Source: a bacterium (GTDB lineage: Bacteria; Patescibacteriota; Patescibacteriia; Patescibacteriales; UBA12465). Taken from it: a stretch of DNA of 64,000 bases. The position numbers were made by a program, and so were the translations under genes. The stretch lies in assembly GCA_035402825.1 (NCBI GenBank), contig DAONDZ010000002.1, forward strand, positions 1,854 through 65,853, given 5' to 3'. Below, piece by piece: positions 704 through 54,653 of the stretch; the first letter of the stretch is position 1; every line of letters begins with the position of its first letter. Under the pieces are notes generated by a model that worked only from the letters and a program-made list of their open reading frames with translations, was not told where the DNA came from and made no database searches.

Positions 704-710
704 TAAAGAT

Positions 711-1892: not shown

Positions 1893-1896
1893 AGCT

Positions 1897-3438: not shown

Positions 3439-3441
3439 TAT

Positions 3442-3470: not shown

Positions 3471-3476
3471 AATCTC

Positions 3477-4703
3477 ATGAAAAAATTACTCAAAATATCT
3501 CTACTCATAATCGTTCTCGGTCTGGCTTTTAATCGAGCTGATTTGGCTTGGGGAGGATATGAAGAAGAGATTAACGACCAGATAAAAACCCTAAACGGCC
3601 AAATATCCGGACAGAAACAAAAAATCAGCGATATCCAAGCTAAACAGCAAAAATATTTGGAAGCCATTAGCCAAAAACAACAAGAACAGAACACTTTAGG
3701 CAATGAACTCAGTATTATCAACGACCGCTTGGAAAAAGCTAATTTAGAAATTGAGGCTACCGAGTTGGAAATTGATAAGACTAATTTGGAAATCAAAAAA
3801 TTAAACATTGATATCCGCAGCAAGGATGAAGCGATATCCAAGAACAAGGAAAAAATAGCCAGCTTATTAAAATTAATGTATAAGCAAGACCAGGTTTCCG
3901 CCTTAGAAATACTACTCTTAAATAACTCCTTATCTGATTTCATCAATCAATTGAAGTATTTGCAAAACACCAACGAAGAGATATTAAATAGTGTAGAAGA
4001 CCTTCAAACGGTCAAAGATAAACTAGAAGCCGACCAACAGATATTATCCGACAAGCAAACGGAATTAGGCAAACTTAAGGCTGTTTTAGACGAGCAACAG
4101 CAGGCTTTAGCCGGAGAACAGCAGAACAAGAGTTATGTTTTGCAAGAAACCCGCCAATCAGAAAAGCAATATCAATTAATGCTCCAACAAGCCAAGAGAG
4201 AACAACAGCAAGCCGAAGCCGATATTTCCAATATGGAAAAAACCATGCGGGAAAAATTGGCCAAATTGAAAAACGGCAACAAGCTAACTTATGACGGCTT
4301 AGCTTGGCCAGTTGCCAAAAACTATATTTCCGCTACTTTCCATGACCCCGACTATCCTTATCGCCGCTCCATTGGCGAACACTCCGGAATTGATATCCGC
4401 GCCAGCTATGGCTCCACTTTAAGGGCAGCGGCTGACGGTTATGTGGCCAGGGTAAAATTTGATGGTTCCAAAAACTATGCTTATATCATGATTGTTCACG
4501 CCAATGGCCTATCCACTGTCTATGGCCACGTCTCCGGTGTCAGCGTCAAGGCTGATGACTACGTAGTCCAGGGTCAGGCTATCGGCCGTACCGGCGGCAT
4601 TCCGGGTTCACCGGGATCAGGACCATTCTGTACCGGCCCGCACCTGCACTTTGAAGTCCGTTCCAACGGCTTACCGGTTGATCCTCTAGAATATTTACCA
4701 TAA
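3477..4703 (+). CDS. Secreted M23/LytM-family metallopeptidase with long N-terminal coiled coil (EnvC-like architecture)
   Basis: Signal/TM N-terminus, ~250 aa of Q/E/K-rich heptad-like sequence, and a C-terminal M23 domain with HSGIDIRA, ADGYV and GPHLHFEV. Confidence 0.8.
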   Translation: MKKLLKISLLIIVLGLAFNRADLAWGGYEEEINDQIKTLNGQISGQKQKISDIQAKQQKYLEAISQKQQEQNTLGNELSIINDRLEKANLEIEATELEIDKTNLEIKKLNIDIRSKDEAISKNKEKIASLLKLMYKQDQVSALEILLLNNSLSDFINQLKYLQNTNEEILNSVEDLQTVKDKLEADQQILSDKQTELGKLKAVLDEQQQALAGEQQNKSYVLQETRQSEKQYQLMLQQAKREQQQAEADISNMEKTMREKLAKLKNGNKLTYDGLAWPVAKNYISATFHDPDYPYRRSIGEHSGIDIRASYGSTLRAAADGYVARVKFDGSKNYAYIMIVHANGLSTVYGHVSGVSVKADDYVVQGQAIGRTGGIPGSPGSGPFCTGPHLHFEVRSNGLPVDPLEYLP

Positions 4704-4712
4704 ATATATTTC

Positions 4713-4742
4713 AAAATCCCCACTCTCTGTGGGGATTTTTTG
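4713..4742 (+). terminator. Rho-independent terminator of the M23 peptidase gene
   Basis: aaaATCCCCActctctgTGGGGATttttt: 7-bp GC-rich stem followed by a T-run. Confidence 0.6.
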
Positions 4743-4745
4743 ATA

Positions 4746-4773
4746 TTAAAAAACCCCGGATTAATTCCGGGGA
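4746..4773 (-). terminator. Rho-independent terminator of the 4782-5819 gene
   Basis: On the minus strand: CCCCGGAattaaTCCGGGGtttttt, a 7-bp stem plus T-run, immediately 3' of the stop at 4782. Confidence 0.55.
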
Positions 4774-4781
4774 TAAAATCT

Positions 4782-5819
4782 TTAGTTTATTGGCAATACA
4801 AGACGAATATCACAGCCCCATTTTATATCGGAGTCAAAATCATAAACAATAAATCTGGGGGAGTCGGTATTAACCAAAACCGCAATTAGCTCTTCTGTGA
4901 GCTTGTCTTTACTAAGCGGTTTATGCTCATCTCTCTTGGCTAAAAAAAGGGTGCCAAATGATTCAAACCCTTCTCCTTCCCTGAGCCAGTTGGGAAATTC
5001 CTGACAAAATTCTATTATCTGGTCTTGGGAAAAAATCTTTTTCTCCCAAGGACCCGGAGCGAAGGAAAATAGTTCTCTTATTTTGCCAGCAAGAATAGGT
5101 TCGTATACTTTCGCTCCAACCTCCGGAGTAGCCGCGCCCAATGGATTAATTTTTACTTGCTTGAGGTCAATATTAAAATATTTAAAGACCCCATTCGTTC
5201 CATTAAGTCTGCGTTTCCCGTCCAGCGATTTAATGGTTAGTGTTTCACCCTTAGAAATAAGCCGTAAAGAACCTACAACCTCGTGTTGTTTCGACAAGGG
5301 ACAAATTATGTCAAAAGTTCCAAAGGTTTTAGGGGAAAGACCGCCAAAAAAATCGCCAAAATCAAGAAATCGAAAACCAACACTCAACCCCTCACTTAAA
5401 TCATTTTTATCCAAATGATTAAATACTGACACCACCACCAAATTATCTTCTGGTTTATGCTCGTCAATTGGTCTATTTTCATCTTTTTTTATCAGAAAAA
5501 AACTAGTGTTGTGACAATTCATTTTTGTCCGATGTTGGCATAATTCTACTACTTGATCCTGGGACAGCCATTTTTGATTCCAGGTACCAGGCAATGAATC
5601 AAAAAACTTTCTGCTAGTCGCATCTCCAAAGGTCCTATAGACAATCACTTCGGCCTCTGAAGTGGCTACACCTGGCTTATTAATACCGTAGTGGTTAAAC
5701 CAAGAGTCAATACCGATATCAAAGACTTCTGGAGATTGACAAATGAGACGTTGGCCGGATAAGGCCTTAATTTTTATTGGTTTCCCAATTGCTCGTAAAT
5801 AGTCGTTTTTATATTTCAT
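4782..5819 (-). CDS. Hypothetical protein made of two tandem copies of a ~165-aa domain
   Basis: The two halves align. Examples: IKIKALSGQRL / LTIKSLDGKRRL; PGTWNQKWLSQDQVVELCQH / PGPWEKKIFSQDQIIEFCQE; FFLIKKDENRPIDEHKP / LFLAKRDEHKPLSKDK. No known family recognised. Confidence 0.5.
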   Translation of the reverse strand: MKYKNDYLRAIGKPIKIKALSGQRLICQSPEVFDIGIDSWFNHYGINKPGVATSEAEVIVYRTFGDATSRKFFDSLPGTWNQKWLSQDQVVELCQHRTKMNCHNTSFFLIKKDENRPIDEHKPEDNLVVVSVFNHLDKNDLSEGLSVGFRFLDFGDFFGGLSPKTFGTFDIICPLSKQHEVVGSLRLISKGETLTIKSLDGKRRLNGTNGVFKYFNIDLKQVKINPLGAATPEVGAKVYEPILAGKIRELFSFAPGPWEKKIFSQDQIIEFCQEFPNWLREGEGFESFGTLFLAKRDEHKPLSKDKLTEELIAVLVNTDSPRFIVYDFDSDIKWGCDIRLVLPIN

Positions 5820-5845
5820 GTTTTAAGTTGTTAAGGTAATAAAAA

Positions 5846-5874
5846 ATTATAGCGCCGCTGATAATACTTGTCAA
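5846..5874 (-). promoter_or_regulatory. Consensus sigma70-like promoter (TTGACA-17 nt-TATAAT) for the 4782-5819 gene
   Basis: The minus strand reads TTGACAagtattatcagcggcgcTATAAT. The -35 is at 5874-5869 and the -10 at 5851-5846. The leader is ~25 nt without an obvious SD. Confidence 0.5.
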
Positions 5875-5919
5875 TTAAAAAAATCCCCTCTAAAAAGGAG
5901 AATTTCTTTGAAAAAACTA

Positions 5920-6876
5920 TTAAAAATCATGGTGGCTATGAACCTTCTTATGAATATCTCTTAGTTGCTTATTGGTGACATGGGTATAAATCTGAGTGGT
6001 GGCGATATTCTTGTGTCCCAAAAACTCTTGGACCAAACGCAAATCAACGCCCTGGGATAATAAGTCAGTGGCAAAAGAATGGCGCAAGGTATGGGGCGTG
6101 GCATTGACTGGCAGGCCGGCAATTTTAACATACTTACTAACCGTCCCTTCAATGCTTTTGACGCTCAAACGCCTGTCAGCGCCGCTCTTATTGGCTCCAG
6201 GACGATAATTAACGAACACGGCCGGGTCCAAGTCCTCCCGCTTGGCTAAATAGGCCTTGAGAGCCGAAACAGCCCGCTCAGAGAAATAAACGGTGCGAAC
6301 CTTGGATCCTTTACCCACAATAGTCAGCTCAAAATCAGTAGTACTGTCGCGAAAGCGCAAATCATCCCGACTGAGCTTAGCTAATTCGGAAACACGCAAA
6401 CCAGTCGAAAACAAAGCTTCGAGTATTGCCTTGTCCCTTAACCCCGCTTCTTTCTTGGTGTCCGGGGCGGCTAATAGTTTTTTTAATTGATCTAATTTTA
6501 AAAACTTTATTTCCCGTTCAGCCCGGTCTTTAGCCAGTTTCACTTTGGAGGGCGGCAGGGAAGTAATGTTCTTTTCCACGAAGAACTCCAGGAGGCTGCG
6601 CAAGGCGATGAGATAATAGTTTTGGGTACTTTTTTTAAGCAGTTTCTTATTCACCGGGTCCACGAAACGAGACAGGAAAATCCGGTATTTCCAGATATGA
6701 TCTTCGGTCAAATCCTGAGGCAGAAGGGAAGAGAGTCCGCTAGCGTTTAGCCATTTAAAAAACTTATTTAAAAATCGGCTATAATTCTCCTGGGTTTTCA
6801 CCGATAGCCCTTTTTCTATCTCCGAATAGTCCAAGAAATCAACTAAATATTTAATTATCGGTTTTTGATTGCTCAT
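5920..6876 (-). CDS. Tyrosine recombinase, XerC/XerD type
   Basis: N-terminal SAM-like core-binding domain plus a catalytic domain with GLRVSEL (R), GKGSKVRTV (K), HTLRHSFAT (HxxR) and LGHKNIATTQIYTHV (H...Y). Confidence 0.8.
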   Translation of the reverse strand: MSNQKPIIKYLVDFLDYSEIEKGLSVKTQENYSRFLNKFFKWLNASGLSSLLPQDLTEDHIWKYRIFLSRFVDPVNKKLLKKSTQNYYLIALRSLLEFFVEKNITSLPPSKVKLAKDRAEREIKFLKLDQLKKLLAAPDTKKEAGLRDKAILEALFSTGLRVSELAKLSRDDLRFRDSTTDFELTIVGKGSKVRTVYFSERAVSALKAYLAKREDLDPAVFVNYRPGANKSGADRRLSVKSIEGTVSKYVKIAGLPVNATPHTLRHSFATDLLSQGVDLRLVQEFLGHKNIATTQIYTHVTNKQLRDIHKKVHSHHDF

Positions 6877-11413: not shown

Positions 11414-13432
11414 TTAAAAATTAGGAATGGTGGCTAAAATTTCAAAAACTCCATTATTATCCAAATCTTCGGTCAGCACCTTTACCCCCTTAGTGTAAGT
11501 ATTGTCATAGGCCATAAACTGACTTTTTATTTTGCCTTGCAAATTAAATATCTTGATATGCGGCCCGCCGGTGGCGCCAGGGCTGGTAACAATTTCATTT
11601 TTACCATCACCATCGACATCGGCGCTGGCGACATAAACGCCGCCCTTAAATCGCTTGTCATAAGCCATGAACTTATTCAACATTTTGCCTCGTTTATCAA
11701 ATACTCTGACTTCTGGACCGCCGCCGGTTCCGGCGCCGGTAATAATATCCTTTTGACCGTCACCATCCATATCGGCACTGGCAATATTAACCCCGCCCTT
11801 AAAATTTTTGTCATAGGCTAAAAAGACACCAAGTAGTTTTCCCTGAGTATTAAAAATTTGTACTTGCGGCGCATAGCCCTTAAAAGCGCCCACCAATATT
11901 TCCGCTTGGCCATTATTATCTAAATCGGCTACCGCCATGCTAATCTGCTCTTTAGTACTTTTATTAATCGGAGCGAATGATTTTATCTTCTGGCCTTGGC
12001 GATAAATACTAATTTGGTTTTGATAATTAGAAACCATTTCTTCTTGGCCGTCACTATCAATATCAGCGATATGAATTTGAGATTGACCCGGCAAACTATC
12101 TAAATAGGAGAAAAAACCGTTCTGGGTCTGTTCGCCTTGATTATTAAAAGACCGAACGAAATAGCCGTTATAGAAGCGGCTATTTTTTATTTCCGTTTTG
12201 CGTTTTAATAAAATGATACCGTCATTAGGATTAACCTTCACCCAATTAACTTTAGTGCCGTCATTGACAGTGCCATCCTGGGAGCCATTAATTTTTTCCA
12301 CTTCTTCAAAACCAAAAACATAGCGCTGGGCTTGATTGGTGGAATTGACTAACACCAAACCATTTTCAAAATCTTTGCGCCAGAGACCAGGTTTGAAAGT
12401 ATCATTTTCCCTATCCAAAAGATTATAGGCCGGATAAAGCGCCCGCCCCAAATCAACGTCATATTCATCATACCACCACAGCTGTCCGTGATCGGTATTA
12501 TTATAGTCATAGCTGAAATAACCACCATCTCTCAACATGGCGCTAGTTAAGGCAAAGCGCATCTTCTGAAAATTATTGCGATCGCCGCTATAAGAATTGA
12601 TGACCGCTAACTGCGGGGTGCGATTATATTTAGCAATCCGATAATATGATTTCATAGATCCGGACCAGGTCCCGCCATTTTCCCAAGGGCTGGGAAAGTT
12701 TTCCATGAGCATGCCATTTAAATAAGGTTGGTAGCCGTCATAAATTAATCCATTGCCCATCAAGATAACATCATTGCCCATTAATCGGCGGCTGAGATCC
12801 AACATTGACTTAACACCGTTGGCCCATTGGCTATTGACGGTGGCGGCACTTTCTGTGCGGCCGTCGTTGTTAATATCAATATCCCCCTTCACCCAGGTAA
12901 CATCTCCCCAGAGATTATCATAATAAATGCCGTCCCAGAGGCCGGTGCTATAAATATTTTCACTGACAAAGCGAGGCAAGAATTGATTGAAGCCGGTATT
13001 AGCGCTGAGGTTAAACATATATGTGCCGGGCCAAAATGAAATCCGTTGGCCAGAACCGTCTTTTAACCAATAAGAAGACTCCACTTGGTCCACCAGCCTT
13101 TTGCGCAAGGTAGCGTTCATTTGCCATTCAGAATTATAGATATCGGCATTAGCTTCTTCGGAAGTGATATAAGCTAAAATAATAATATCGGGATTAAGGG
13201 ATCTGATTCTTTCCAAATTAGCCCGGCTATTTTCTTGGACTTCCATGTCTAAAATCAATAAATCCCAGCGAGCCAATTCTTCCACTTCGTAGTCTTCAAT
13301 AGTCCAACGCAGGAAATAATTAGCTAACTTGGGATTTAAACGCTCATCATCCGCCTCACTAGCGGTGGGGGCAATAATAAATAGAGTTAAGAATAGCAAT
13401 AAAATTGTAGTGATTCTTTTGGTCCAATCCAT
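11414..13432 (-). CDS. Secreted putative glycoside hydrolase (GHL15/GH114-like TIM barrel) with C-terminal FG-GAP/VCBS repeats
   Basis: The TIM-barrel-like N-terminal half (WDLLILDME, PDIIILAYI, LWDGIYYDNLW) is paralogous to 24724-26349. The C-terminus has 5 Ca-binding-type repeats (DIDSDGQEE, DLDNNGQAE, DMDGDGQKD, DVDGDGKNE, DLDNNGVFE). The track start at 13450 is a GTG. The ATG at 13432 (MDWTKRITTILLLF...) gives a clean signal peptide. Confidence 0.6.
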   Translation of the reverse strand: MDWTKRITTILLLFLTLFIIAPTASEADDERLNPKLANYFLRWTIEDYEVEELARWDLLILDMEVQENSRANLERIRSLNPDIIILAYITSEEANADIYNSEWQMNATLRKRLVDQVESSYWLKDGSGQRISFWPGTYMFNLSANTGFNQFLPRFVSENIYSTGLWDGIYYDNLWGDVTWVKGDIDINNDGRTESAATVNSQWANGVKSMLDLSRRLMGNDVILMGNGLIYDGYQPYLNGMLMENFPSPWENGGTWSGSMKSYYRIAKYNRTPQLAVINSYSGDRNNFQKMRFALTSAMLRDGGYFSYDYNNTDHGQLWWYDEYDVDLGRALYPAYNLLDRENDTFKPGLWRKDFENGLVLVNSTNQAQRYVFGFEEVEKINGSQDGTVNDGTKVNWVKVNPNDGIILLKRKTEIKNSRFYNGYFVRSFNNQGEQTQNGFFSYLDSLPGQSQIHIADIDSDGQEEMVSNYQNQISIYRQGQKIKSFAPINKSTKEQISMAVADLDNNGQAEILVGAFKGYAPQVQIFNTQGKLLGVFLAYDKNFKGGVNIASADMDGDGQKDIITGAGTGGGPEVRVFDKRGKMLNKFMAYDKRFKGGVYVASADVDGDGKNEIVTSPGATGGPHIKIFNLQGKIKSQFMAYDNTYTKGVKVLTEDLDNNGVFEILATIPNF

Positions 13433-13473
13433 AATAGGTAAAATTATCACAAAAATGCACTATTGTCAACAAA

Positions 13474-16490: not shown

Positions 16491-17417
16491 ATGAATTATG
16501 AAACAGCTTCAGAGCTTTTCCAGTTTTTAAAGACGGAAAAAGAAATATTAAAACTCTTGGCTCAAGTTGAAAGCCAGGATATTGAAGATGCCAGCCGCGG
16601 AGTAATTCCCCTTTTAAAGCTGGAGAAAAAATCAGAACGGCGGATATTAGATATCGTCAAGCAGGCCAACTACAATCAGATTATCTGCGCGGCCGCTCTG
16701 CCGTATATCAAGTCGGAATATCAAATCTTTAACATCATCAAAAAGACTCATGGCCAGAGCGCTGTCTGCCTAGCAGCTATCCCCTGCCTAAAACTGAGGC
16801 AAAAAACTGACAAACAACTTTTGACCGCTCTTAAAAGGATGGGCAGCCATCTGCTGGCTTGTCAGATGATTATTCCCTATTTGAATCTGAAAAAGAAAAA
16901 CCAGGAACAAATTTGGGAGATTATCCAAAAAAGCGGCTATGCCACTGGAATTTGCTTGGAAGCCATTAACCATCTGAAATTAACAGAAAACCAAGCCTTG
17001 ATGCTATTAAGAATGAACGATGATTTTGATTTGAGCCGCAAAGTTATTCCTTATCTGGAGTTAAAAAACAAAACGGAAAGTGAAATCATGGCCTTACTGG
17101 AAAAAATCGGTTATCCGGCCATTGTCTGCTGCGCTGGAATTCAATTTCTCAAACAAGAAGAATTAATTTTGCGCCTCATGACCCTGACTAATTTTCATGT
17201 CGCCGTTTGCCAGCTGGGTGTTAATCTACTCAAACCGGCGGAACAGACAGAAAAAAGGCTTATGGAAATTACCAGAAAGACCGCCTATCACCCCCATCTC
17301 TGCTGGTACTTCATTGCATTCATTAAATCCAAAAAAAGGATTTTAGAAATCATGAAAGGAACCAACTACGACGCCAGAATCTGCAAAGAAGTTTTGCAAA
17401 GGGAAAAATTAAGTTAA
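16491..17417 (+). CDS. Hypothetical alpha-helical tandem-repeat protein (~10 repeats of 27-31 aa, one conserved Cys each)
   Basis: Repeat consensus roughly K.xEx(I/L)(L/M)x(I/L)(I/L)xKxGYxxx(I/V)CxxA(I/L)P(Y/C)LKL. Cys residues fall at 66, 93, 124, 155, 213, 240, 271 and 298. Confidence 0.5.
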   Translation: MNYETASELFQFLKTEKEILKLLAQVESQDIEDASRGVIPLLKLEKKSERRILDIVKQANYNQIICAAALPYIKSEYQIFNIIKKTHGQSAVCLAAIPCLKLRQKTDKQLLTALKRMGSHLLACQMIIPYLNLKKKNQEQIWEIIQKSGYATGICLEAINHLKLTENQALMLLRMNDDFDLSRKVIPYLELKNKTESEIMALLEKIGYPAIVCCAGIQFLKQEELILRLMTLTNFHVAVCQLGVNLLKPAEQTEKRLMEITRKTAYHPHLCWYFIAFIKSKKRILEIMKGTNYDARICKEVLQREKLS

Positions 17418-17421
17418 GCCC

Positions 17422-17455
17422 AAAAAAGCCAGGGACTGCGGTTCTTGGCTTTTTC
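17422..17455. terminator. Bidirectional terminator between convergent genes
   Basis: aaaaAAGCCAGGGActgcggTTCTTGGCTTttt: 10-bp stem (2 G-U pairs) flanked by an A-run and a T-run. Confidence 0.55.
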
Positions 17456-17480
17456 ATATTCTTGAATTTTTAAAATAATC

Positions 17481-20018
17481 TTATTTTGCCACTCCAACTC
17501 GGCGCAATATATCCAGATCCACAATATTTCTGTCTTGACCGAATTTAAAGCGGCTAATCTCTCTAATCTTGGGGCCCAGCCCCTGGCGATAGGTGCCCAT
17601 GAGCGGCCAAACAGTTTGCAGGGAGAAAGGACGAGTGGAAGCGCCGTCCACTAATAGTTTTATAAACCCACCTCGGCCGACATTAACCAAGTCATATTCA
17701 TTAAACACCGGACCGAAATCTTTAACCAAAAATTCAGCGTCCTCCGAACCGACGCGGAAACTGATCATCGTACCGACGTTGCCGAAGATAGCATCTTTAA
17801 TCTTAGAATCTTGATTCTTGTTCAATTGGCCGATATATTGATGGGCCACGGTCAAACACAAAGCGTATTTTCTGGCCTCAGATAATATCTGACAAATAGA
17901 ATCAGTGGTAAAGTTTTGGAACTCATCAATGTAGAGATAGAAATCTTTGCGATCTTCCGGAGCCATATCGGTACGACTCAAAGCGGCCATCAATATTTTG
18001 CCGACGATAATCATACCCAACAGATAAGCATTGGTTTCGCCAATGGCGCCTTTAGGTAATTCCACTAAAAGAATTTTCTGTTTGTCCATCACATCGCGCA
18101 AATTAAAAGCGCTCTTTTGCTGGCCGATAATCGGGCGCATCATATCATTAGAAACAAACGGGGTTAGTTTGGAAGTAATATAGGGGACGATATTAGCCAA
18201 AGCGGCATCACCGCCGGCTTTTTCCGCTTCTTTGCGCCAAAAATCAACCACCGTCGGATTCTGACAACGAGACAATTTCATCCGGCGGAAACTTTCATCG
18301 GCTAGAACCTTGGGCACTTCCATTAAAGTGGAACCGGTTTCGGGATCGTCCATGATTAACAAAAGAGCGTTTCTCATGTATTGCTCAAACATCGGACCGC
18401 CGGTAGATTTCAAATCATACAACTTGTCAAAAATATTAATCATTTCGTTAATCACAAAACTCTTTTGCTCCGGATAGCGGCTATCGTATTCCAGCAAGTT
18501 AAGTCCTAAGGGGCGCTCCATATCGCCAGGAGAGAAAATGATAACATCCTCGGCTCTCTCCGGAGGAATACGGGCTAAAATATCTTCAATCAAATCGCCG
18601 TTCGGATCCATCACGCAAACTCCATCGCCATTTTCAATATCTTGAATGGCCATATTATTCAACATGACGGATTTACCAGTACCAGACTTACCAATGATAT
18701 AGGCATGACGGCGGCGATCCACTCGCTTGATGCGAATGTCAGTCCTAATGCCTCTGAAGATATTGAATCCCAACATCACGCCTTCGTTAGGCAGATTATT
18801 AGGAGCCGGAGCGGTTTTAGACAACAACCAATCAATATTCGGAGTCTCGGTATGAGGCAAGGGGAAATGAAACAGACTGGTCATCTCTTCGGTATTCACT
18901 ACGAAGCTTTGCTTATCAATGAAGCGATGATAGATAAAATTATTAATAGTGTGTTGCTGGTTTTTCTTAATCGGCCGGCGGAAACTATTGCCATATTCGT
19001 AGTAATTATATTCGCTGAAAGCGCTGCCGATATTATCTAAATACATCACGCTCTGCCCCTCAGTCTGAGCGCTTACTACTATTCGGATATTAACGTCTAA
19101 ACCGGCTTTAGAGTTCTTGTCCTCCATTTTCTTGAGCATCTCTCTTTCCTTCTCGCTCAATTGTTTCTGCGGAGCTTGAGGATCCTTATCTTTAGTCTCT
19201 AGCATGCCAAAGGCGCCCAGGATGATATAATAGACAAAAAAATTAAAGGTGCTCTGAAAAGCGTTATTGCCGATTTTAAAGATAGCGCTGACGCTTTGTT
19301 TTTCATAAGCCTTCATCACCATTTTCTTGACCGCTTTATGCCATTGTTTCTTGGCGCTGCGCACCGTGTATTGAATGCTGATACTTTCCTCAGTTTTCAA
19401 TTTTGACATGACATTAATCACCGAGTTCAAAGGATCAGCTTCAATATCGTTATAGGTCTTAATAGGAAAAATAAAACTCCGGCTAGTTTTTAAATAAGCC
19501 GCACTGATATAGCTCTTGGCGTTGAAAGGATTGAAATCACTGACTGCCTCAATAGAGGCCTCGGGATAATAAGCGTGAATTTGCTGTTCAATGTATAAAG
19601 CTTTGTCGGCGGGAGCGGAGACATAAAAAGAAATCCGATTTTGGTGAGCGACTATTTCAAAAGAAAAATGATCACGCCGACCCAAAAATTTAGAGCTCAA
19701 GCTCTTGTCGGCTTTTAATCCGCCGATGGCCGAAAAAACCGTTTCGCCGCGGGCAATCTCTTCCCGCAACTGTTGCAAACTCATATTCTGACCTTCGTCC
19801 TTAGGCTTTTCTTTGGGCAAACGAACAATGAAAACCGTATGATCAAAATGGCTGTTATTCACCGACCAGCGATAGATGAATTTTTTTAAAATCCAGAGAA
19901 CAAAAACTATAGCGGCCAACCAAAAAATCAATGGCCAATTAATTCCAGTCTGATTAATAGCTGCTTCCAGATTCGGATCCACTAAAGGTACGCCGGTTGT
20001 TTCGCCAGTGTAATCCAT
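17481..20018 (-). CDS. Type IV coupling protein-like (VirD4/TraG/TraD-type) P-loop ATPase with N-terminal TM and a ~400-aa uncharacterised module
   Basis: Walker A HAYIIGKSGTGKS, Walker B FYLYIDEFQNF, and LTVAHQYIGQL. The N-terminal module (FSFEIVAHQNRISFYVSAP...YYPEASIEAV...FPIKTY...LFHFPLP) is homologous to the 486-aa protein at 44520-45980. I believe this module corresponds to a Pfam DUF (DUF8128), but that is from memory and unverified. Confidence 0.7.
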   Translation of the reverse strand: MDYTGETTGVPLVDPNLEAAINQTGINWPLIFWLAAIVFVLWILKKFIYRWSVNNSHFDHTVFIVRLPKEKPKDEGQNMSLQQLREEIARGETVFSAIGGLKADKSLSSKFLGRRDHFSFEIVAHQNRISFYVSAPADKALYIEQQIHAYYPEASIEAVSDFNPFNAKSYISAAYLKTSRSFIFPIKTYNDIEADPLNSVINVMSKLKTEESISIQYTVRSAKKQWHKAVKKMVMKAYEKQSVSAIFKIGNNAFQSTFNFFVYYIILGAFGMLETKDKDPQAPQKQLSEKEREMLKKMEDKNSKAGLDVNIRIVVSAQTEGQSVMYLDNIGSAFSEYNYYEYGNSFRRPIKKNQQHTINNFIYHRFIDKQSFVVNTEEMTSLFHFPLPHTETPNIDWLLSKTAPAPNNLPNEGVMLGFNIFRGIRTDIRIKRVDRRRHAYIIGKSGTGKSVMLNNMAIQDIENGDGVCVMDPNGDLIEDILARIPPERAEDVIIFSPGDMERPLGLNLLEYDSRYPEQKSFVINEMINIFDKLYDLKSTGGPMFEQYMRNALLLIMDDPETGSTLMEVPKVLADESFRRMKLSRCQNPTVVDFWRKEAEKAGGDAALANIVPYITSKLTPFVSNDMMRPIIGQQKSAFNLRDVMDKQKILLVELPKGAIGETNAYLLGMIIVGKILMAALSRTDMAPEDRKDFYLYIDEFQNFTTDSICQILSEARKYALCLTVAHQYIGQLNKNQDSKIKDAIFGNVGTMISFRVGSEDAEFLVKDFGPVFNEYDLVNVGRGGFIKLLVDGASTRPFSLQTVWPLMGTYRQGLGPKIREISRFKFGQDRNIVDLDILRRVGVAK

Positions 20019-20023
20019 AGAAA

Positions 20024-20494
20024 TTATTGATGTTTTAATTTAACAATTTTATCCGCCTTAATTTTAGCTTCCTGTTCTAAGAAGAAACGATTGACTCCGG
20101 GAATAACTTTTAACCAATTGCGAATTAGTTCCACGATTTTTTTCATTTTCACCTTAGCTTGGCTCATCAACTGATTGATCTTTCTGGTGGTCTCCTCGCC
20201 CTTGGCCTTAAACTGTCCCTGGGCTTGGGGTGACATTTGTAAATAGGTATCTTCCAAACCTTCGGAAAGAATCTGTTCTATCTGTTCCAAACGAGCTTCA
20301 TATAGCGACTTAGTTCTAACCGGAGCCGCCACGGGAGCACTGGGCTGAGGAGTCGGCTCACCCTTAGTCTCCATCTTTTCAACTTTTTTTTCTATAGCAA
20401 CCTCCACCTGGCTGGAATCATCAGGGGTGGAAATAGCTTCAGACTGCCCCAGGGGAGCAGTTTCAATTTTATTGGCAATATTTTCTTCGGACAT
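20024..20494 (-). CDS. Hypothetical protein (acidic/Pro-rich N-terminus, helical C-terminus), in an operon with the T4CP-like ATPase
   Basis: 156-aa ORF with a 5-nt gap to the ATPase gene and a 2-nt gap from the ferredoxin gene. No family recognised. Confidence 0.45.
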   Translation of the reverse strand: MSEENIANKIETAPLGQSEAISTPDDSSQVEVAIEKKVEKMETKGEPTPQPSAPVAAPVRTKSLYEARLEQIEQILSEGLEDTYLQMSPQAQGQFKAKGEETTRKINQLMSQAKVKMKKIVELIRNWLKVIPGVNRFFLEQEAKIKADKIVKLKHQ

Positions 20495-20496
20495 AG

Positions 20497-20670
20497 TTAT
20501 TCTACGGTAATCGCTTCTACCGGACAGGAAGCAGCGGCGGTTCTAGCGCAATCAGTATTATCCTGGCTAATCACCTCAGACTTCCCGGCTTGGTTCATTT
20601 GAAAGGTATCGGGGCAAGTATTAGCGCATAAACCGCAACCCACGCATAAATCTTGATTAACTTTAATCAT
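20497..20670 (-). CDS. Small single-cluster [4Fe-4S] ferredoxin (57 aa)
   Basis: Below the ORF-track cutoff. Translation: MIKVNQDLCVGCGLCANTCPDTFQMNQAGKSEVISQDNTDCARTAAASCPVEAITVE. The pattern CxxCxxC...CP plus a distal C...CP matches Thermotoga/Pyrococcus-type mini-ferredoxins. SD-like aagga lies 8 nt upstream. Confidence 0.75.
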   Translation of the reverse strand: MIKVNQDLCVGCGLCANTCPDTFQMNQAGKSEVISQDNTDCARTAAASCPVEAITVE

Positions 20671-20698
20671 AATAGAGTCCTTAATAAATTATGGTATT

Positions 20699-20727
20699 AT
20701 TATAACATAATTAGGATACATTGACAA
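20699..20727 (-). promoter_or_regulatory. Promoter (TTGTCA-17 nt-TATAAT) of the ferredoxin/156-aa/ATPase operon
   Basis: The minus strand has TTGTCA at 20727-20722 and TATAAT at 20704-20699. Its -35 overlaps the -35 of the divergent rpmA promoter. Confidence 0.5.
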
Positions 20728-20749
20728 AGAATGGGCTCTTTGCTATATT
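20721..20749 (+). promoter_or_regulatory. Promoter (TTGACA-17 nt-TATATT) of rpmA
   Basis: TTGACA at 20721-20726 and TATATT at 20744-20749. The leader is ~45 nt without a clear SD. Confidence 0.5.
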
Positions 20750-20799
20750 ATTGGAGCCTTTACAAAAACATTTTATTATTTTAATTGCTTTAAAACTAT

Positions 20800-21087
20800 A
20801 TGTCGCATAAGAAAGCGGCTGGTACTACAGCCCTGGGACGAGATTCCCAAAGTAAACGTCTCGGCGTTAAGCTATCTGATGGCCAATATGCCAAAATCGG
20901 TTCCATTATTATCCGCCAACGCGGTACTAAATATCATGTCGGCGCTAATGTAAAACGCGGTAATGATGACACTTTATTCGCTGTTAAGACCGGTTTAGTC
21001 AAATTCACCACCAAGAAAATGAAGAAATTTGATAACACCTTAAAAACCGTTAAAGTTGTTTCCGTCCTACCGGTAGCCGCTAAATAA
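20800..21087 (+). CDS. rpmA: 50S ribosomal protein L27
   Basis: [24 protein letters not shown]...[18 protein letters not shown] is a canonical L27 sequence. It is monocistronic here, with no adjacent rplU. Confidence 0.9.
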
Positions 21088-21100
21088 AAATCAAACAAAA

Positions 21101-21133
21101 AAAAAGACCGTTTTAACCAGCGGTCTTTTTGTT
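21101..21133 (+). terminator. Rho-independent terminator of rpmA
   Basis: aaAAAGACCGttttaaccagCGGTCTTTttg: 8-bp stem plus T-run. Confidence 0.65.
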
Positions 21134-21152
21134 TAACTACTTTGGAAATTAT

Positions 21153-21183
21153 AAAAGCCTTCCGTTGCGGGAAGGCTTTTTTT
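21153..21183. terminator. Second hairpin terminator; on the minus strand it ends the 21203-22093 gene
   Basis: aAAAGCCTTCCgttgcgGGAAGGCTTTtttt: 10-bp stem, T-run on plus, and ttttat after the stem on minus. Confidence 0.6.
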
Positions 21184-21202
21184 CTTAGTTCTTTCGAAAC
21201 GC

Positions 21203-22093
21203 TTACCTTAAGCCGTAGAAGAGGGCCATCGGATTAATTTTGATTCCGATCTCGTTAGCGCCAATTCCGTCGCCCATGGAAGTGCGGGTGTAATAAATAT
21301 CCATGGCGTGGCCGATAAACTTATAAGAATTGAGAGAGATGCCGCCGGTAAATTTCCAGGCGTTAAATGATCCAAAAGGAGTCATATTGGTATATGAAAT
21401 ACCAGCATCAAATCCGATTCCTACTTTATTTCTCTTGCAGCTGATGCCGAAAACTTCGGCACTGTACCCGGCATCGAAGAAAAAAGTTTTCACATCTTCA
21501 TTGTCAAGCGGGGACTTAATGATCTTTTCGCCGAAGGTGGTCTTCATGCTTTCGGAAAATGCGTACGCTCCGAAGAAATGAAGTTCCTGTTCCCGGAAGG
21601 CTTTCACCGTTCCGTTCTTTACACCTTCTGAGGTGATGCCCACTCTTTCGGAAAATATTACCGAATGGGTCACCGCCTCTTTGCGCCAGGTCGTAGCGGT
21701 ACCGTCGTCGTTAATAAATTGGTAGTGGTTAGCTTTAATGAAATATTCGTACCCAACGAATATTTCATTATACACGGATTCATAATAACCCGTTCCACTT
21801 CCCAACCAGCCAAACTGGGTGTTGCCGATCATGCCGCGAATTTTCATACGGTCGCCGGCAGCGGTATCAAGGACGTTGGTTACGTAATTGCACCCGATTA
21901 TAAAATCGATGTACTTGGTCCGGAAGGCCAGGTCAACGATGAATTCGTTGCCTTCACCTAACGTAGCGGTATCCTTCATCATTTTAGTTGATGTGGCGCC
22001 AAGCGCCAGATCAATTGGAGTCGGCCTCTGCTGGGCCATGGCGGTGATAGAAATTATCATCACTGCAAACATTAAAAACATTTTTGCTTTCAT
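21203..22093 (-). CDS. Secreted beta-strand-rich protein, possibly beta-barrel-like; monocistronic
   Basis: Signal peptide MKAKMFLMFAVMIISITAMAQQ. Alternating hydrophobic/polar, Gly/aromatic-rich sequence runs to the C-terminus (GIGFDAGISYTNM..., WKFTGGISLNSYKF..., IGIKINPMALFYGLR). It has its own promoter and terminator. Confidence 0.5.
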   Translation of the reverse strand: MKAKMFLMFAVMIISITAMAQQRPTPIDLALGATSTKMMKDTATLGEGNEFIVDLAFRTKYIDFIIGCNYVTNVLDTAAGDRMKIRGMIGNTQFGWLGSGTGYYESVYNEIFVGYEYFIKANHYQFINDDGTATTWRKEAVTHSVIFSERVGITSEGVKNGTVKAFREQELHFFGAYAFSESMKTTFGEKIIKSPLDNEDVKTFFFDAGYSAEVFGISCKRNKVGIGFDAGISYTNMTPFGSFNAWKFTGGISLNSYKFIGHAMDIYYTRTSMGDGIGANEIGIKINPMALFYGLR

Positions 22094-24723: not shown

Positions 24724-26349
24724 TTAGTAGCGACCGACGATAATCTCAGTAATTTCGTCTTTATTTAAATCTTCGCTTAATAGATCTAATTTACCGCTTT
24801 TCCCTAAATTTTCCACAGAGAAACTGGCTAAGAGCTTGGCTCTGAGGCTAAAAATCTTTAGTTTATCCTGTCCCCCAGCTGGCAAAGTAGCGATTTCCAG
24901 CTGGCCATCGCCATTATAATCCCCTAAAGACACCAAAACCGCGGCGGTTTTTAGTCGGGGATAAGGATTAAATGCCCCTACCAGCTTCTGATTATAATAT
25001 ATCCACACCCCCGGGCGGCTATAAGCTCCTGAGCCCTTTATCCCCACCCCATTGATTAAATTAGTTCTAGCCCCCTTTTGTACCTTGCTACTGACTAATT
25101 GAGTGGCCACGGTTTTCCCGGATAAATCATAGCCGCTATAAGTGCCACCTGAAAATAAAGACGATTGAAGAGAACGCACTCTTTCCAGGAGCCAACCGCT
25201 GCGGGCAGGCACGGAAATGCTTTTCGTTTTAGCTTTTTTCCCCACTAAGCGATATTCTGTTTCCAAATTAATAGTCGTTTCTTGAGCTTGAGGATTTAAA
25301 ATGGCTAGGCCATTTCTAAACTCCCGGCGATAATACTTGGCGCCGGTTTCATCAAATAATTCCTGAGCTGCGCCTAAGGGTTCGCCTAAATTAAAATCGT
25401 ATTCTTTAAACCACCAAGATTGACCGTGGTCGGAAATATTGCGGTCAAAGCTGAAATAAATGTTATCAAACAAAACCGAGCTGGAGAGTCCGTAAAGACG
25501 CCGAGAAAAATTGTCGCTCTCGTTGTTGGTTAGATTAAAAACATAAATTTGCGGAGACAAGTTAACCGCTTGAATTTTCTGATAGCTGGAAATATTATCT
25601 TCCCAGGTACCCCGTCCTTCATAAACGCTGGGAAAATCTTCAAACAAACGGCCGTTTAAATATTGGTGATACGGCAGATAGGAACTGCTGTTAGCCAATA
25701 AAATATATTTTGAGCCGACTCTATCACGAGTAGCTGACAAAATATTCTCCACACCTTCTTGCCAGGCTCTATTTAACTCCGCAGTTCCCTCCCGACGGCC
25801 ATCGCCGTTTATATCTACATCGCCGCCATTTAGCCAGGCAACATCTTCCCAGAGATTATCAAAAAAGATTCCATCCCAGAGACCGGAAGACAGAATTTCT
25901 TCGTCTATAAAGCGGGGCAAGTAATCATCAAAACCACTATTGGCCACGTTAATCATCCAGGTGTCCGGCCAAAAACTGATTTTTTTGCCGGCTTCATCGC
26001 GCAGATACCAAGAATCCGGCAGAGCAGCAAACATTTTTTGCCGCAGGGGGATATTATATAAGGCGGTATCGTTTCTAATTTCCTGGGAGCTGATATAGGC
26101 CAGAATAATGATATCGGGATGGAGCTCTTTAATCTTTTTCAATCTTTGCGGATTAACCGCCTGATTTTCCATGTCTAATATTAGAACGTCAAACTTAGCC
26201 AATCCCGCCACCTCAGCATCGGTTATTTGCCAACGCAAAAAAGCATTGGCGGTTTTAGGATTAGCCTGGCCAATGCTCGCGGCTGAAGCGAAACTAGCTC
26301 CGCCCAGAAGGCTTAGAGCTAAAAATAAAATTATGATTTTTTGGCGCAT
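24724..26349 (-). CDS. Secreted putative glycoside hydrolase (GHL15/GH114-like) with a short FG-GAP C-terminus; paralog of 11414-13432
   Basis: Signal peptide present. NPKTANAFLRWQITDAEVAGLAKFDVLILDME...HPDIIILAYIS...LWDGIFFDNLW aligns closely with the 678-aa protein. C-terminal motifs GDYNGDGQLE and EDLNKDEITE are present. Confidence 0.6.
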   Translation of the reverse strand: MRQKIIILFLALSLLGGASFASAASIGQANPKTANAFLRWQITDAEVAGLAKFDVLILDMENQAVNPQRLKKIKELHPDIIILAYISSQEIRNDTALYNIPLRQKMFAALPDSWYLRDEAGKKISFWPDTWMINVANSGFDDYLPRFIDEEILSSGLWDGIFFDNLWEDVAWLNGGDVDINGDGRREGTAELNRAWQEGVENILSATRDRVGSKYILLANSSSYLPYHQYLNGRLFEDFPSVYEGRGTWEDNISSYQKIQAVNLSPQIYVFNLTNNESDNFSRRLYGLSSSVLFDNIYFSFDRNISDHGQSWWFKEYDFNLGEPLGAAQELFDETGAKYYRREFRNGLAILNPQAQETTINLETEYRLVGKKAKTKSISVPARSGWLLERVRSLQSSLFSGGTYSGYDLSGKTVATQLVSSKVQKGARTNLINGVGIKGSGAYSRPGVWIYYNQKLVGAFNPYPRLKTAAVLVSLGDYNGDGQLEIATLPAGGQDKLKIFSLRAKLLASFSVENLGKSGKLDLLSEDLNKDEITEIIVGRY

Positions 26350-31035: not shown

Positions 31036-32967
31036 TTATTGTAATCCTACCTGTAAGCTCTGGTCAGCGGTTAAAGTCGATTCGGTTTCTAATTTTCCGC
31101 CACTGGAAACGTTAAGGGCGGCGCTCATTCCGGCGGCGCTATTAATCTCGGAAAGAAAATCCAAGCTCAAGTCTAAAGCCTTAGCTCGATTGCCCGCCTG
31201 TTTCTGAATTAGCAAATTATAATTCCCCTCTTTCACCTGGCTCCAAACTGAATCCGGTAATTTATATTCAAATTCCAAATAGCCTTCTTCGCCCGGTTCA
31301 ATGGACAAGAAAGAACCGAAATAAGTTTTAGCTTTAGTCTCATCATCAAAAGTATCATCCTTGACTTCTAAGCTGCCATCAACGTAACCGGCTGACTTAA
31401 TCAGTTTTGATCCTTGCGGCACATAGACTCTAGTGTAGCTGCGATAGCGGGTAGTCTTCCAATCAAATCCACCGCCATGGCGATAATCTATTCTGACTTT
31501 AGCATATAACCCATCATCCTTTTCGGACAAAGAATAGTCAATGGTTTTTTCCATAACTCGATCAGTCTTGAAGGCGGCCAAGTTGGCGTCCACCACCATT
31601 AGATAGTCATTGGGCGAAGCCTTCATTTCCCCGTTCCAACCTAAACTCTTGGCTATATTTTGGAGAGAGCGATCGTTGAAATAAACTAAAATGTTTTTTT
31701 GATAGATGTCGGAGTTCACCGTCTGCAGTAATTCGGCGTAACGGCTGGTGGGCAAATTAAACAAACGATCTTTGAGGACACTGAATATTTCGCCAATAAC
31801 TTTTTTTCTATCCCATTGCGATTCTCCGCGATCGCGATAAGCCATTTCCACTTCATATTGCAAGAGTTCTACAAAATTATCTTTAGTATATTCCTGGCCG
31901 CCCACAGTAATCGGACCGACTAGATATAATAAGTTGGTGACGAAAGTTGGAGTAATTGCTAAGACGCCATCAAAGTTAGGAGCGGGGTTAATCGTCGGAT
32001 CATTGCTATAAGGCGCCTCAGTTTTGTAAGCCCATTCAATCTGCTTGGCAGAAGTCGGCCAATCTGGAGACCAGTTGGAATCACGTAAATACCAATTGCT
32101 CACGCCTAAATATTTTTGAATCGGCCAAGGCGGCACCACTTTAAAATTAGGATTAATGGAGGCCGGCATATCTAAGTGATATGAATCATGGGTCTGAATA
32201 GTCACCACGCTGCCGTTTTTGACCTGCATCACTCCTAAGGTACCGATAAAGCCGCCGGTGGGACGCAATTCATCGCTATTTTGTAAAACTATTAAATAAT
32301 TGGAAGCTTGAGGGTAACCAGCTACTTGGGGCAAAATCTGGGAGAGGGTCAAAGCTTGGCTCAAAAGTTCCGAGCCTAAAATCAATTTATCCCGGACATC
32401 ATTAATCTGCCCTTTCAATACTCCTAAAAATCCTTGACCGGAAACTTGGCGCAAATCCATAGAAGCCAAATCAATGTCGGCTTTCAAGCCATTCAACTCC
32501 GGTCCGGATTCATAGAGCAAGCGCAAGATTTCTCTTTTTTTAGTTTCTGATAAATCATTAAAGCTCCGGCCTGGTTCATCAGCTATCGCGCCTTCTATTT
32601 TTTCAGCCACTAAGGAGCCGCGGGCAACGGAACGACTCAATACTTCAGCCGTCTTGAGTAGATATTCCCACTCCGCCAAAGTGTCCTGGGAATAATTAAA
32701 GCTCTGCCAGACTTTCTTAGCCCGCAAACTGCTTAAATATTCCGAACCGCTTTTAAAATTATTACTCGCCTTATCCGCCGATTCCGAAGCTGCGGCAAAA
32801 TCGCCGGATTGCAATTGAGCGGCCGCCGCTTCTAAATTGTTTTTCCCGGCCATCGCCGATTTATATAAATGCGGCGCGCCAAAAATCAAAGGCAAATTGA
32901 GAATCAAAACTATGCCAATGAATATCAACGCTGCTAACCCCAAATAACGTAAAATTTTTCCGATCAT
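31036..32967 (-). CDS. DUF4012-like membrane-anchored protein; paralog of 40014-42422
   Basis: N-terminal TM and a helical region, then conserved blocks: LRPTGGFIGTLGVMQVKNGSV, DWPTSAKQIEW, DGVLAITPTFVTNLL, YLMVVDANLAAFKTDRVM and RVYVPQGSKLI. Confidence 0.7.
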   Translation of the reverse strand: MIGKILRYLGLAALIFIGIVLILNLPLIFGAPHLYKSAMAGKNNLEAAAAQLQSGDFAAASESADKASNNFKSGSEYLSSLRAKKVWQSFNYSQDTLAEWEYLLKTAEVLSRSVARGSLVAEKIEGAIADEPGRSFNDLSETKKREILRLLYESGPELNGLKADIDLASMDLRQVSGQGFLGVLKGQINDVRDKLILGSELLSQALTLSQILPQVAGYPQASNYLIVLQNSDELRPTGGFIGTLGVMQVKNGSVVTIQTHDSYHLDMPASINPNFKVVPPWPIQKYLGVSNWYLRDSNWSPDWPTSAKQIEWAYKTEAPYSNDPTINPAPNFDGVLAITPTFVTNLLYLVGPITVGGQEYTKDNFVELLQYEVEMAYRDRGESQWDRKKVIGEIFSVLKDRLFNLPTSRYAELLQTVNSDIYQKNILVYFNDRSLQNIAKSLGWNGEMKASPNDYLMVVDANLAAFKTDRVMEKTIDYSLSEKDDGLYAKVRIDYRHGGGFDWKTTRYRSYTRVYVPQGSKLIKSAGYVDGSLEVKDDTFDDETKAKTYFGSFLSIEPGEEGYLEFEYKLPDSVWSQVKEGNYNLLIQKQAGNRAKALDLSLDFLSEINSAAGMSAALNVSSGGKLETESTLTADQSLQVGLQ

Positions 32968-54641: not shown

Positions 54642-54653
54642 ATGTTTTTTAAG

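Follow-up and report, generated by a model that had tools for sequence, protein, structure and literature searches.

The 64,000-nt stretch of Patescibacteria DNA analysed here (contig DAONDZ010000002.1, hereafter the window) carries on its minus strand three closely packed genes, which encode a 57-aa ferredoxin, a 156-aa protein and an 845-aa P-loop ATPase. Our analysis identifies the ATPase as a homologue of the type IV coupling proteins (T4CPs) and shows that its plan, an N-terminal transmembrane (TM) helix followed by a DUF8128 module and an ATPase domain, is ancestral and integral to a T4CP subfamily and is not a fusion specific to the candidate phyla radiation (CPR). The open reading frames (ORFs) of the locus and the signals around them are as follows.

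20670..20497 (20497..20670), minus strand: ferredoxin ORF, 57 aa, from the ORF reading
20494..20024 (20024..20494), minus strand: ORF of the 156-aa protein, from the ORF reading
20018..17481 (17481..20018), minus strand: ATPase ORF, 845 aa, stop codon included, from the ORF reading
20699..20727, minus strand: sigma-70-type promoter TTGTCA-17-TATAAT with an extended -10 TG, matching 11/12 consensus positions
20721-20749, plus strand: divergent rpmA promoter, 11/12 positions and TG, back-to-back with the ferredoxin-operon promoter
20800-21087, plus strand: rpmA, the window gene behind the divergent promoter
17423..17454, listed on the plus strand: GC-cored hairpin with a 14-pair stem and A and T runs on its flanks, the T-run lying on the minus strand by reading

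The original prediction placed three minus-strand genes, spaced by 2 and 5 nt, behind one TTGTCA-17-TATAAT promoter, and the ORFs, the gaps (2 nt between the ferredoxin gene and the 156-aa gene, 5 nt between the latter and the ATPase gene) and the promoter match all bore this out. The promoter was the top-scoring promoter-like site on the minus strand within 17200-21200 and lies in the sole intergenic region upstream of the three-gene set; promoter-like sites totalled 15 against 8.8 +/- 2.8 in shuffles, a count that by itself is weak evidence. With their tight spacing and single upstream promoter, the genes form one predicted transcription unit, as had been proposed. Orthologues of all three occur in the same order in at least 31 other genomes, and the trio is therefore more than a chance arrangement. 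The two divergent promoters, whose -35 hexamers adjoin, share an intergenic region of 129 nt and would drive rpmA on the plus strand and the ferredoxin operon on the minus strand. The hairpin sits between the ATPase gene and a convergent ORF at 16491-17417 and is a probable bidirectional terminator.

An ATPase architecture shared with coupling proteins of conjugative plasmids

The features of the 845-aa protein, all on the minus strand, are listed below with the evidence for each; AF2 denotes the AlphaFold2 model.

19875..19931, minus strand: single N-terminal transmembrane helix, residues 30-48, by hydrophobicity; in AF2 a continuous helix over residues 28-55
18729..19850, minus strand: DUF8128 (PF26449) N-module, residues ~57-430, an alpha/beta domain of ~380 aa
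17484..18728, minus strand: TrwB/VirD4-type P-loop NTPase domain, residues 431-845, by Pfam and by profile matches to TrwB (E 1e-7) and DotL (E 1e-5)
18126-18467, minus strand: helical insertion (all-alpha domain), residues ~518-631, in AF2
18669..18692, minus strand: Walker A GKSGTGKS, residues 443-450, by sequence, with a DRRRH motif (434-438) just N-terminal of it
17916..17939, minus strand: Walker B region YLYIDEFQ, residues 694-701, by sequence

The T4CP-like motifs reported earlier for this protein (GKSGTGKS, LYIDEFQNF and AHQYIGQL) are all present, and its C-terminal half scored above the Pfam cut-offs of TrwB_AAD_bind (38.9 bits; cut-off 20.5), T4SS-DNA_transf (33.6; 20.1) and TraG-D_C (27.9; 22). 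More than 3000 database clusters matched the ATPase, the best 120 being full-length, 64-89% identical and derived from metagenome-assembled genomes (MAGs) of Patescibacteria/Falkowbacteria type. All 120 of these best-matching homologues carry precomputed annotations of PF26449, which is DUF8128 by its database label, and of the T4CP domains PF10412, PF02534 and PF12696. The DUF8128 assignment was made via the precomputed annotation of these listed homologues; it showed that the domain name given in the original prediction was correct. We conclude that the 845-aa protein is a DUF8128-type type IV coupling protein homologue. Literature searches for DUF8128 or PF26449 found no paper.

The ATPase was compared by tblastn with 72,556 plasmids. 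Matches were found in 412 plasmid records, and in 18 of these a single match, 23-27% identical, spanned 80% or more of the query. The plasmid homologues, 812-885 aa long, include proteins of Bacillus methanolicus pBM69 (WP_003349917), of a 27.5-kb B. subtilis plasmid (885 aa, labelled 'DUF87 domain-containing protein') and of an Embleya (Streptomycetaceae) linear plasmid (WP_331738717). They directly adjoin a Replic_Relax relaxase-type gene and lie near genes for PrgI/VirB3, a VirB4-like ATPase, 'conjugal transfer proteins' and an NlpC/P60 hydrolase; they occupy the coupling-protein position of monoderm conjugation modules. A DUF8128 hidden Markov model (HMM) built solely from Patescibacteria N-modules matched the N-termini of three of these plasmid proteins (E 4e-36, 4e-36 and 9e-21), and because it matches the N-termini of proteins in the T4CP position, the architecture of TM helix, DUF8128 and ATPase is ancestral to the monoderm T4CP subfamily. 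The earlier description of the ATPase as fused to an uncharacterised module thus had to be given up, since the N-module is DUF8128 and the plasmid homologues have the same full-length plan. This ancestry fits the published descent of the Patescibacteria type IV secretion system (T4SS) from the monoderm MPF-FATA class (PMC12102498).

The plasmid proteins and the window protein are alike in full-protein architecture and length, with alignments that cover residues 87-820 of the window protein, and in their C-terminal domains (TrwB_AAD_bind, TraG-D_C and DUF87, with T4SS-DNA_transf in the Embleya protein). They differ in that their identity to the window protein is only 24-26%, and in their surroundings: relaxase, PrgI/VirB3, VirB4-like ATPase and cell-wall hydrolase genes adjoin the plasmid genes, whereas none of them occurs in the 64 kb of the window. 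Moreover, the window gene is chromosomal, vertically inherited and paired with the 156-aa protein, which the examined plasmid loci do not have.

Sequence profiles placed the C-terminal domain nearer to VirD4/TrwB than to VirB4. The VirB4 model TIGR00929 gave 25.1 bits against a cut-off of 643, on a C-terminal motif only, and CagE_TrbE_VirB gave no match in the Pfam scan of the ATPase. NCBIfam TraD/VirD4 equivalog models also stayed far below their cut-offs (51.6 versus 366, and similarly for the others). The same Pfam scan gave 13.6 bits for FtsK_SpoIIIE (cut-off 24), no FtsK alpha or gamma domain, and no Fe-S or flavin motif in the ATPase. Among 44 family sequences, down to 33% identity, G443, G446, G448, K449, D434, R435, R437 and H438 were invariant, as were D698, E699, Q727, R716 and K717. 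As the Walker A, Walker B and other core residues do not vary over this range, the ATPase appears catalytically intact and is presumably active.

The one N-terminal TM segment that had been noted before was found at residues 30-48, and a hydrophobic segment above threshold lies near the N-terminus in 43/44 family members. Across the 44 members, lysines and arginines number 0-2 (usually 0) on the N-terminal flank of this segment and typically 3-6 on the C-terminal flank, a positive-inside bias that predicts an N-terminus outside the membrane and ~790 residues in the cytoplasm. The N-module that follows contains a poorly conserved linker at residues ~245-285, modelled with low confidence. Searched by itself, the module found 1847 representative clusters, with an N-terminal placement in the full-length members (mostly ~800-860 aa).

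The full-length AF2 model, based on the alignment of 44 sequences, reached a pLDDT of 85.8 and a pTM of 0.75. In Foldseek its nucleotide-binding domain with the inserted all-alpha domain superposed on TrwB of R388 (TM-score 0.64-0.68, root-mean-square deviation 4.4-5.3, ~420 columns), and the C-terminal domain also matched Cagbeta, DotL and HerA; at the sequence level the Walker A region aligns with TrwB at E 1e-7. The window protein shares an N-terminal membrane anchor with the classical T4CPs (TrwB, VirD4, TraD, Cagbeta, DotL). Classical T4CPs such as TrwB have two TM helices, whereas one is predicted here; unlike TrwB and VirD4, the window protein has a ~380-aa domain between its TM helix and the ATPase, and its gene is without the relaxase or T4SS context of the classical T4CPs.

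In outline the protein is also like VirB4 (TrwK of R388), in which an N-terminal domain of ~400 aa precedes a RecA-like ATPase in a total of ~800 aa. The best Foldseek E-values for the full-length model were to full-length TrwK/VirB4, with alignments spanning both proteins. When the N-module was modelled separately (pLDDT 84.5), its top 14 PDB matches were all TrwK/VirB4 chains, at E 1e-5 to 2e-3 and TM-scores of 0.40-0.43. Sequence comparison gave the N-domain no such signal: a profile search of the PDB with the N-module found no sequence-level match, the DUF8128 HMM did not match the VirB4-like proteins of the plasmid loci, and hhalign against a thin three-sequence VirB4 profile returned probabilities of 0.4% (N-module) and 41% (full length). 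The window differs further from a VirB4 setting in having no VirB3, VirB6 or VirB8. On the models, the likeness of DUF8128 to the VirB4 N-terminal domain would be a resemblance of fold, not proven homology.

Gene order, the 156-aa protein and the ferredoxin

We compared 80 related genome loci over +/-6 kb around the ATPase gene (ATPase identity 54-73%); flanking families were named by eye unless the window orthologue had been Pfam-scanned. Gene order is conserved across these 80 genomes, with the ATPase set among housekeeping genes (rpmA ... dnaX-serS), and two types were seen. In type A the order is S41-protease-like, CTP-synthase-like, rpmA(-) / ferredoxin, 156-aa protein, ATPase, dnaX, serS, GHL15; in type B it is cysS-like, dus-like, corA-like(-) / 156-aa protein, ATPase, a 224-aa protein, dnaX and a patatin-like gene. 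The ATPase gene is chromosomal and vertically inherited. Over the same loci the median identity was 64% for the ATPase, 51% for DnaX and 71% for ribosomal protein L27, and the ATPase was more conserved than DnaX in 51/53 loci; it evolves more slowly than DnaX.

What is conserved across both gene-order types is the pair of 156-aa protein and ATPase. Of the 66 loci whose upstream DNA is long enough, 56 have a homologue of the 156-aa protein no more than 400 nt upstream of the ATPase gene (median gap 3.5 nt), and such a homologue still stands beside an ATPase that is only 45% identical (hmmsearch E 9e-48). The family alignment agrees with the earlier description of an acidic/Pro-rich N-terminus and a helical C-terminus: the first ~65 aa are variable, acidic/Pro-rich and probably disordered, and the C-domain of ~90 aa is conserved and helical, with the pattern ...GEET..KIN...W-L..IPGVN.FFLEQEAKIKADKI (alignment A3). 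None of the 992 homologous clusters carries a Pfam domain. The 156-aa protein itself has no Pfam match above cut-off (one weak sub-threshold match to DUF2057) and no NCBIfam, PADLOC or PDB sequence match. At remoter relatives of the ATPase, non-homologous small proteins with a low-complexity N-terminus and a structured C-terminus occupy the same position. From this recurrent pairing we propose that the 156-aa protein may be a dedicated partner, adaptor or regulator of the ATPase; Cagbeta, which is regulated by the small helical CagZ (PDB 8dol, among our fold matches), is a precedent for such a small partner. At one related locus, L060, a single ORF of 1010 aa (3694-6726) has the 156-aa partner in frame with the ATPase, ...KLKQEES running directly into MNYQG...; this fusion could be genuine, or a stop codon could have been lost in the MAG.

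The ferredoxin has a narrower distribution. As had been recognised from its CxxCxxC...CP motif, the 57-aa protein is a single-cluster [4Fe-4S] ferredoxin (Fer4_13 54 bits, cut-off 24.5; Fer4_15 50.1, cut-off 22.4) with the cysteine pattern CxxCxxCxxxCP...C...CP. Its ORF is conserved, as tblastn found homologues in 35/80 loci; the extended pattern is present in 23 of these 35 and the core CxxCxxC...CP motif in all 12 orthologue sequences inspected. Sixty-two loci have enough upstream DNA, and in 31 of them, all of type A, the ferredoxin gene lies no more than 1 kb upstream; there the triplet has a median gap of 10 nt. In the remoter loci no CxxCxxC...CP ferredoxin-like ORF was found within 3.5 kb upstream, and the ferredoxin is absent from loci P0243, P0285 and P0394; among the ferredoxin entries examined in the Southlakia annotation, none is a stand-alone ferredoxin gene. 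Synteny of the triplet across the CPR, which the original prediction had put forward for checking, was thus seen in one clade; beyond it only the pair of 156-aa protein and ATPase is kept. Within type A, collinearity is just as strong for the unrelated genes on the flanks, and the adjacency of the ferredoxin therefore carries no specific functional signal. We regard the ferredoxin as a clade-specific first gene of the operon that is probably outside the ATPase machine; it would be an ordinary low-potential electron carrier, riding at the head of a constitutively expressed operon in one clade. The window also encodes a 570-aa [FeFe]-hydrogenase (60493-62205, minus strand; Fer2_4, NADH-G_4Fe-4S_3 and Fer4 domains) and, at 54051-56976 on the minus strand, an Fe/Mn superoxide dismutase, a ZIP transporter, NifU and an IscS-like protein; the hydrogenase and the NifU/IscS-like cluster are plausible clients and suppliers of the 57-aa ferredoxin.

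Further observations concern the wider ATPase family. The dnaX gene lies directly downstream of the ATPase gene in type A, one gene downstream in type B and 1.5 kb downstream at locus P0243, and gyrB-gyrA lies downstream of the ATPase in a saccharibacterial orthologue; this recurrent dnaX/gyrBA adjacency may be meaningful or may be plain housekeeping collinearity. Locus L086 holds tandem DUF8128 ATPase paralogues (499-3021 and 3046-5208) that are 36% identical to each other and match the HMM at E 3e-116 and 3e-81, as would fit a count of about two T4CP homologues in each Patescibacteria genome. At locus L084 (2604-12582) an ATPase of 39% identity lies inside a same-strand run of unannotated membrane proteins, with an FtsQ-like POTRA protein and a 597-aa protein of multiple hydrophobic segments upstream, and four small TM proteins and a 532-aa protein with a poly-Pro stretch downstream; in this lineage there may be a larger machine around the ATPase. 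Pfam gave no clue to the function of these remote-locus neighbours (the 224-aa protein, C5, and the L084 membrane-protein cluster).

Candidate roles in Patescibacteria

We scanned with Pfam 53 of the other window ORFs of at least 100 aa, essentially all of the non-overlapping ones, and found no VirB4, VirB6, relaxase, pilin or other T4SS part in the 64 kb; the scan returned housekeeping, cell-envelope, [FeFe]-hydrogenase and Fe-S assembly genes. The recurrent flanking families of the 80 related loci likewise include no relaxase or T4SS gene. The original prediction had noted both the lack of T4SS machinery in 64 kb and, from it, that the ATPase is unlikely to be a classical conjugative coupling protein, and with neither T4SS nor relaxase nearby both points hold. 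The 'orphan' T4CP is no novelty, however, as it has already been published for Patescibacteria: 5,713 VirD4-type homologues were reported in 2,918 of 3,035 genomes, only 148 of them near virB4 (Quinonero-Coronel et al. 2025, PMC12102498). The window ATPase is like these homologues in having a similar ATPase, in its distance from virB4 and in the count of about two copies per genome, while the N-domain, the small partner and the ferredoxin operon are not described in that work. In the published numbers T4CP homologues reach 96% of genomes and VirB4 80%, a gap that is not readable as independence; by our own arithmetic, incomplete MAGs would roughly produce it for a two-copy versus a single-copy gene. 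The Patescibacteria T4SS locus has no recognisable T4CP of its own (PMC12102498, PMC10633639), and the true Patescibacteria VirB4 is a separate protein (PMC12102498).

Published genetic data come from Southlakia epibionticum, which has two T4CP homologues, both far from the T4SS locus (Wang et al. 2023, Tables S1 and S2, PMC10633639). One of them, SEML1_0293 (921 aa), is non-essential. The other, SEML1_0142 (1019 aa, with a P-loop domain spanning residues 381-800), a member of a core Patescibacteria-enriched family, was scored essential (ES) by transposon sequencing at all three time points and is among only 61 class I essential genes; SEML1_0141 (139 aa), 12 nt upstream of it, had zero insertions and was called essential, and most Southlakia T4SS genes are class II (PMC10633639). 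The authors of PMC12102498, who raise a possible exaptation, cite the Southlakia homologue as non-essential; against that statement, Table S1 of PMC10633639 gives NE for SEML1_0293 and ES/ES/ES for SEML1_0142. P0394, a DUF8128 ATPase from a saccharibacterial locus, shares 35% identity with the window protein along 839 residues and has a 71%-identical relative labelled Candidatus Saccharibacteria. Its gene context, ComM(-), a small membrane protein, a small protein and the ATPase, is like that of SEML1_0138-0142, and its small partner is not detectably homologous to the 156-aa family. SEML1_0142 shares the layout of a ~380-aa N-region followed by a P-loop domain, as well as the small upstream gene, and architecture and gene context together make it a probable orthologue, that is, a DUF8128 T4CP with a small partner.

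Our preferred reading, to which we give a probability of about 0.55, is that the ATPase is the domesticated coupling ATPase of a non-conjugative Patescibacteria T4SS, with the small protein as its adaptor. The ATPase would assemble as a membrane-tethered, hexameric, ATP-driven motor that recruits a macromolecular substrate and pushes or pulls it for a relaxase-less Patescibacteria T4SS encoded elsewhere in the genome. Its VirB4-like N-domain could dock it onto the inner-membrane complex, and the 156-aa protein could serve as an adaptor or regulator, in the manner of CagZ on Cagbeta or of T4CP-binding accessory proteins. A further reading, which we consider unlikely, has the DUF8128 ATPase and its small partner as a motor that imports host RNA or DNA through a domesticated T4SS pilus, the coupling protein being reversed or repurposed. 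Import would explain why the family is near-universal, slowly evolving, separated from relaxases and apparently essential in Southlakia; a 2026 preprint (10.64898/2026.06.21.733656) describes host RNA uptake by a cultivated Patescibacterium with T4SS-pilus-like tubes at the host interface and calls the mechanism unresolved.

Several points weigh against the assignment to a T4SS. We saw nothing that ties the ATPase physically or genetically to a T4SS, any T4SS locus that this organism has lies outside the window, and the proximity of only 148 of 5,713 Patescibacteria homologues to virB4 (PMC12102498) tells in the same direction. That SEML1_0142 falls in class I, unlike the class II majority of Southlakia T4SS genes, is a hint of a function outside the T4SS or additional to it. 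We link SEML1_0142 to the family by architecture and gene context rather than by direct sequence comparison, and the second Southlakia paralogue, SEML1_0293, is non-essential; in a star-like neighbour-joining tree the window protein is unplaced between the two Patescibacteria paralogue lineages, and so relative to both. The supposed docking domain resembles that of VirB4 at the level of the modelled fold (TM-score ~0.4), to which the HMM and hhalign lend no sequence support. Gene order alone suggests that the 156-aa protein may interact with the ATPase. Finally, the L060 fusion, if real, would put a cytoplasmic partner on the outside-facing N-terminus of the ATPase, in conflict with the predicted topology and with a simple adaptor model.

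The main alternative is that the ATPase is a housekeeping motor that works independently of any T4SS, on an essential membrane task tied to DNA (replication, topology or segregation) or on another substrate without a T4SS channel. Its neighbours are repeatedly dnaX (in the window clade and at P0243) or gyrB-gyrA (in the saccharibacterial orthologue), its sequence is better conserved than that of DnaX, it is almost never near virB4, the class I essentiality in Southlakia resembles that of information-processing genes and not that of most T4SS genes, and exaptation has been raised in print (PMC12102498). Yet the dnaX/gyrBA adjacency is missing in Southlakia and at P0363 and may reflect plain collinearity, and all characterised relatives with the DUF8128 architecture are T4SS coupling proteins. 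Nor would the ATPase replace FtsK: Southlakia has a complete, canonical and essential FtsK, SEML1_0096, and this, together with the sub-threshold FtsK_SpoIIIE score (13.6 versus 24), led us to reject an FtsK substitute. We consider a T4SS-independent motor possible, though on the whole unlikely. The linkage implied in the original prediction, in which the ferredoxin would be dedicated to gating or powering the ATPase complex, is very improbable. The predicted co-transcription with a 2-nt gap, the triplet kept in 31 loci (median gap 10 nt) and the cluster ligands conserved in the examined orthologues speak for it, but the ferredoxin is confined to one clade and missing from all of the remoter loci that keep the pair, rpmA, the CTP-synthase-like (pyrG-like) gene, dnaX and serS are equally syntenic within that clade, the ATPase has no Fe-S or flavin motif in Pfam, and the [FeFe]-hydrogenase offers the ferredoxin an obvious client in the same genome. 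A ferredoxin mechanistically coupled to a translocase was a tempting idea, and we removed it as unsupported.

Conserved housekeeping synteny effectively refutes the view that the locus is what remains of an integrated conjugative or mobilisable element, with the partner genes just out of sight. Full-length homologues on conjugative plasmids and a tyrosine recombinase gene at 5920-6876 could be cited in its favour; against them stand the lack of a relaxase, VirB4 or other T4SS gene in 64 kb, the identity of only 23-27% to the plasmid proteins, and the rpmA-dnaX position, kept in dozens of genomes at 54-73% identity, which indicates vertical inheritance, while the recombinase is of XerC/D type and lies ~10 kb off amid division and cell-wall genes. 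We give this view hardly any credence. An anti-phage defence ATPase of the HerA or MADS mad8 type is just as improbable and was rejected: PADLOC scored mad8 at E 1.5e-12 and HerA at 6e-5 on the ATPase core, and Foldseek also returned HerA, but these matches stay within the generic P-loop core (residues 432-765), and nothing in the context backs them, since Pfam found no defence domain in the neighbouring genes and neither the 156-aa protein nor the ferredoxin has a PADLOC match. A near-universal, slowly evolving, vertically inherited ATPase with a probable essential orthologue is moreover the opposite of what defence islands show.

Orphan Patescibacteria T4CP homologues and the DUF8128 domain are already catalogued. 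What the present analysis adds is modestly new: the full-length kinship with plasmid T4CPs, the VirB4-like fold predicted for DUF8128, the widespread family of 156-aa partners, a conservation above that of DnaX, and the overlooked essentiality of SEML1_0141/0142. Patescibacteria make up a large share of bacterial diversity and depend on hosts, and how they exchange macromolecules with those hosts is an open question. The DUF8128 ATPase family is among the most conserved of their membrane ATPases, and we nominate the pair of genes for the ATPase and its small partner for genetic and structural work on the Patescibacteria T4SS; this sharpens an existing question and opens no new category.

Other genes of the window

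The convergent ORF between the ATPase gene and dnaX (16491-17417, plus strand) encodes 308 aa with, by eye, repeats of ~35 aa and a Cys-containing motif (ICAAALPYIK, VCLAAIPCLK, ACQMIIPYLN). It belongs to no Pfam family and has no homologue in the 80 related loci, where dnaX directly follows the ATPase, and looks like a lineage-specific insertion. At 21203-22093 (minus strand) lies the gene for a 296-aa protein whose N-terminus looks like a signal peptide (MKAKMFLMFAVMIISITAMAQQ) and whose composition is beta-rich and porin-like; we found no Pfam match for it and only one weak tblastn match (L001, 24% identity). Such a porin-like protein is odd for a presumed monoderm organism. The XerC/D-type tyrosine recombinase at 5920-6876 (minus strand; Phage_integrase and Phage_int_SAM_1) stands near FtsQ-like and alanine racemase genes and does not indicate a mobile element. 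Four minus-strand genes, at 11414-13450, 24724-26349, 31036-32967 and 40014-42422, encode two GHL15 proteins with FG-GAP repeats and two large DUF4012 proteins. Interspersed among these genes are those for GT4 and GT2 glycosyltransferases, a Wzy_C ligase and a Wzz-like protein, and together they form a large cell-surface polysaccharide region that flanks the operon.

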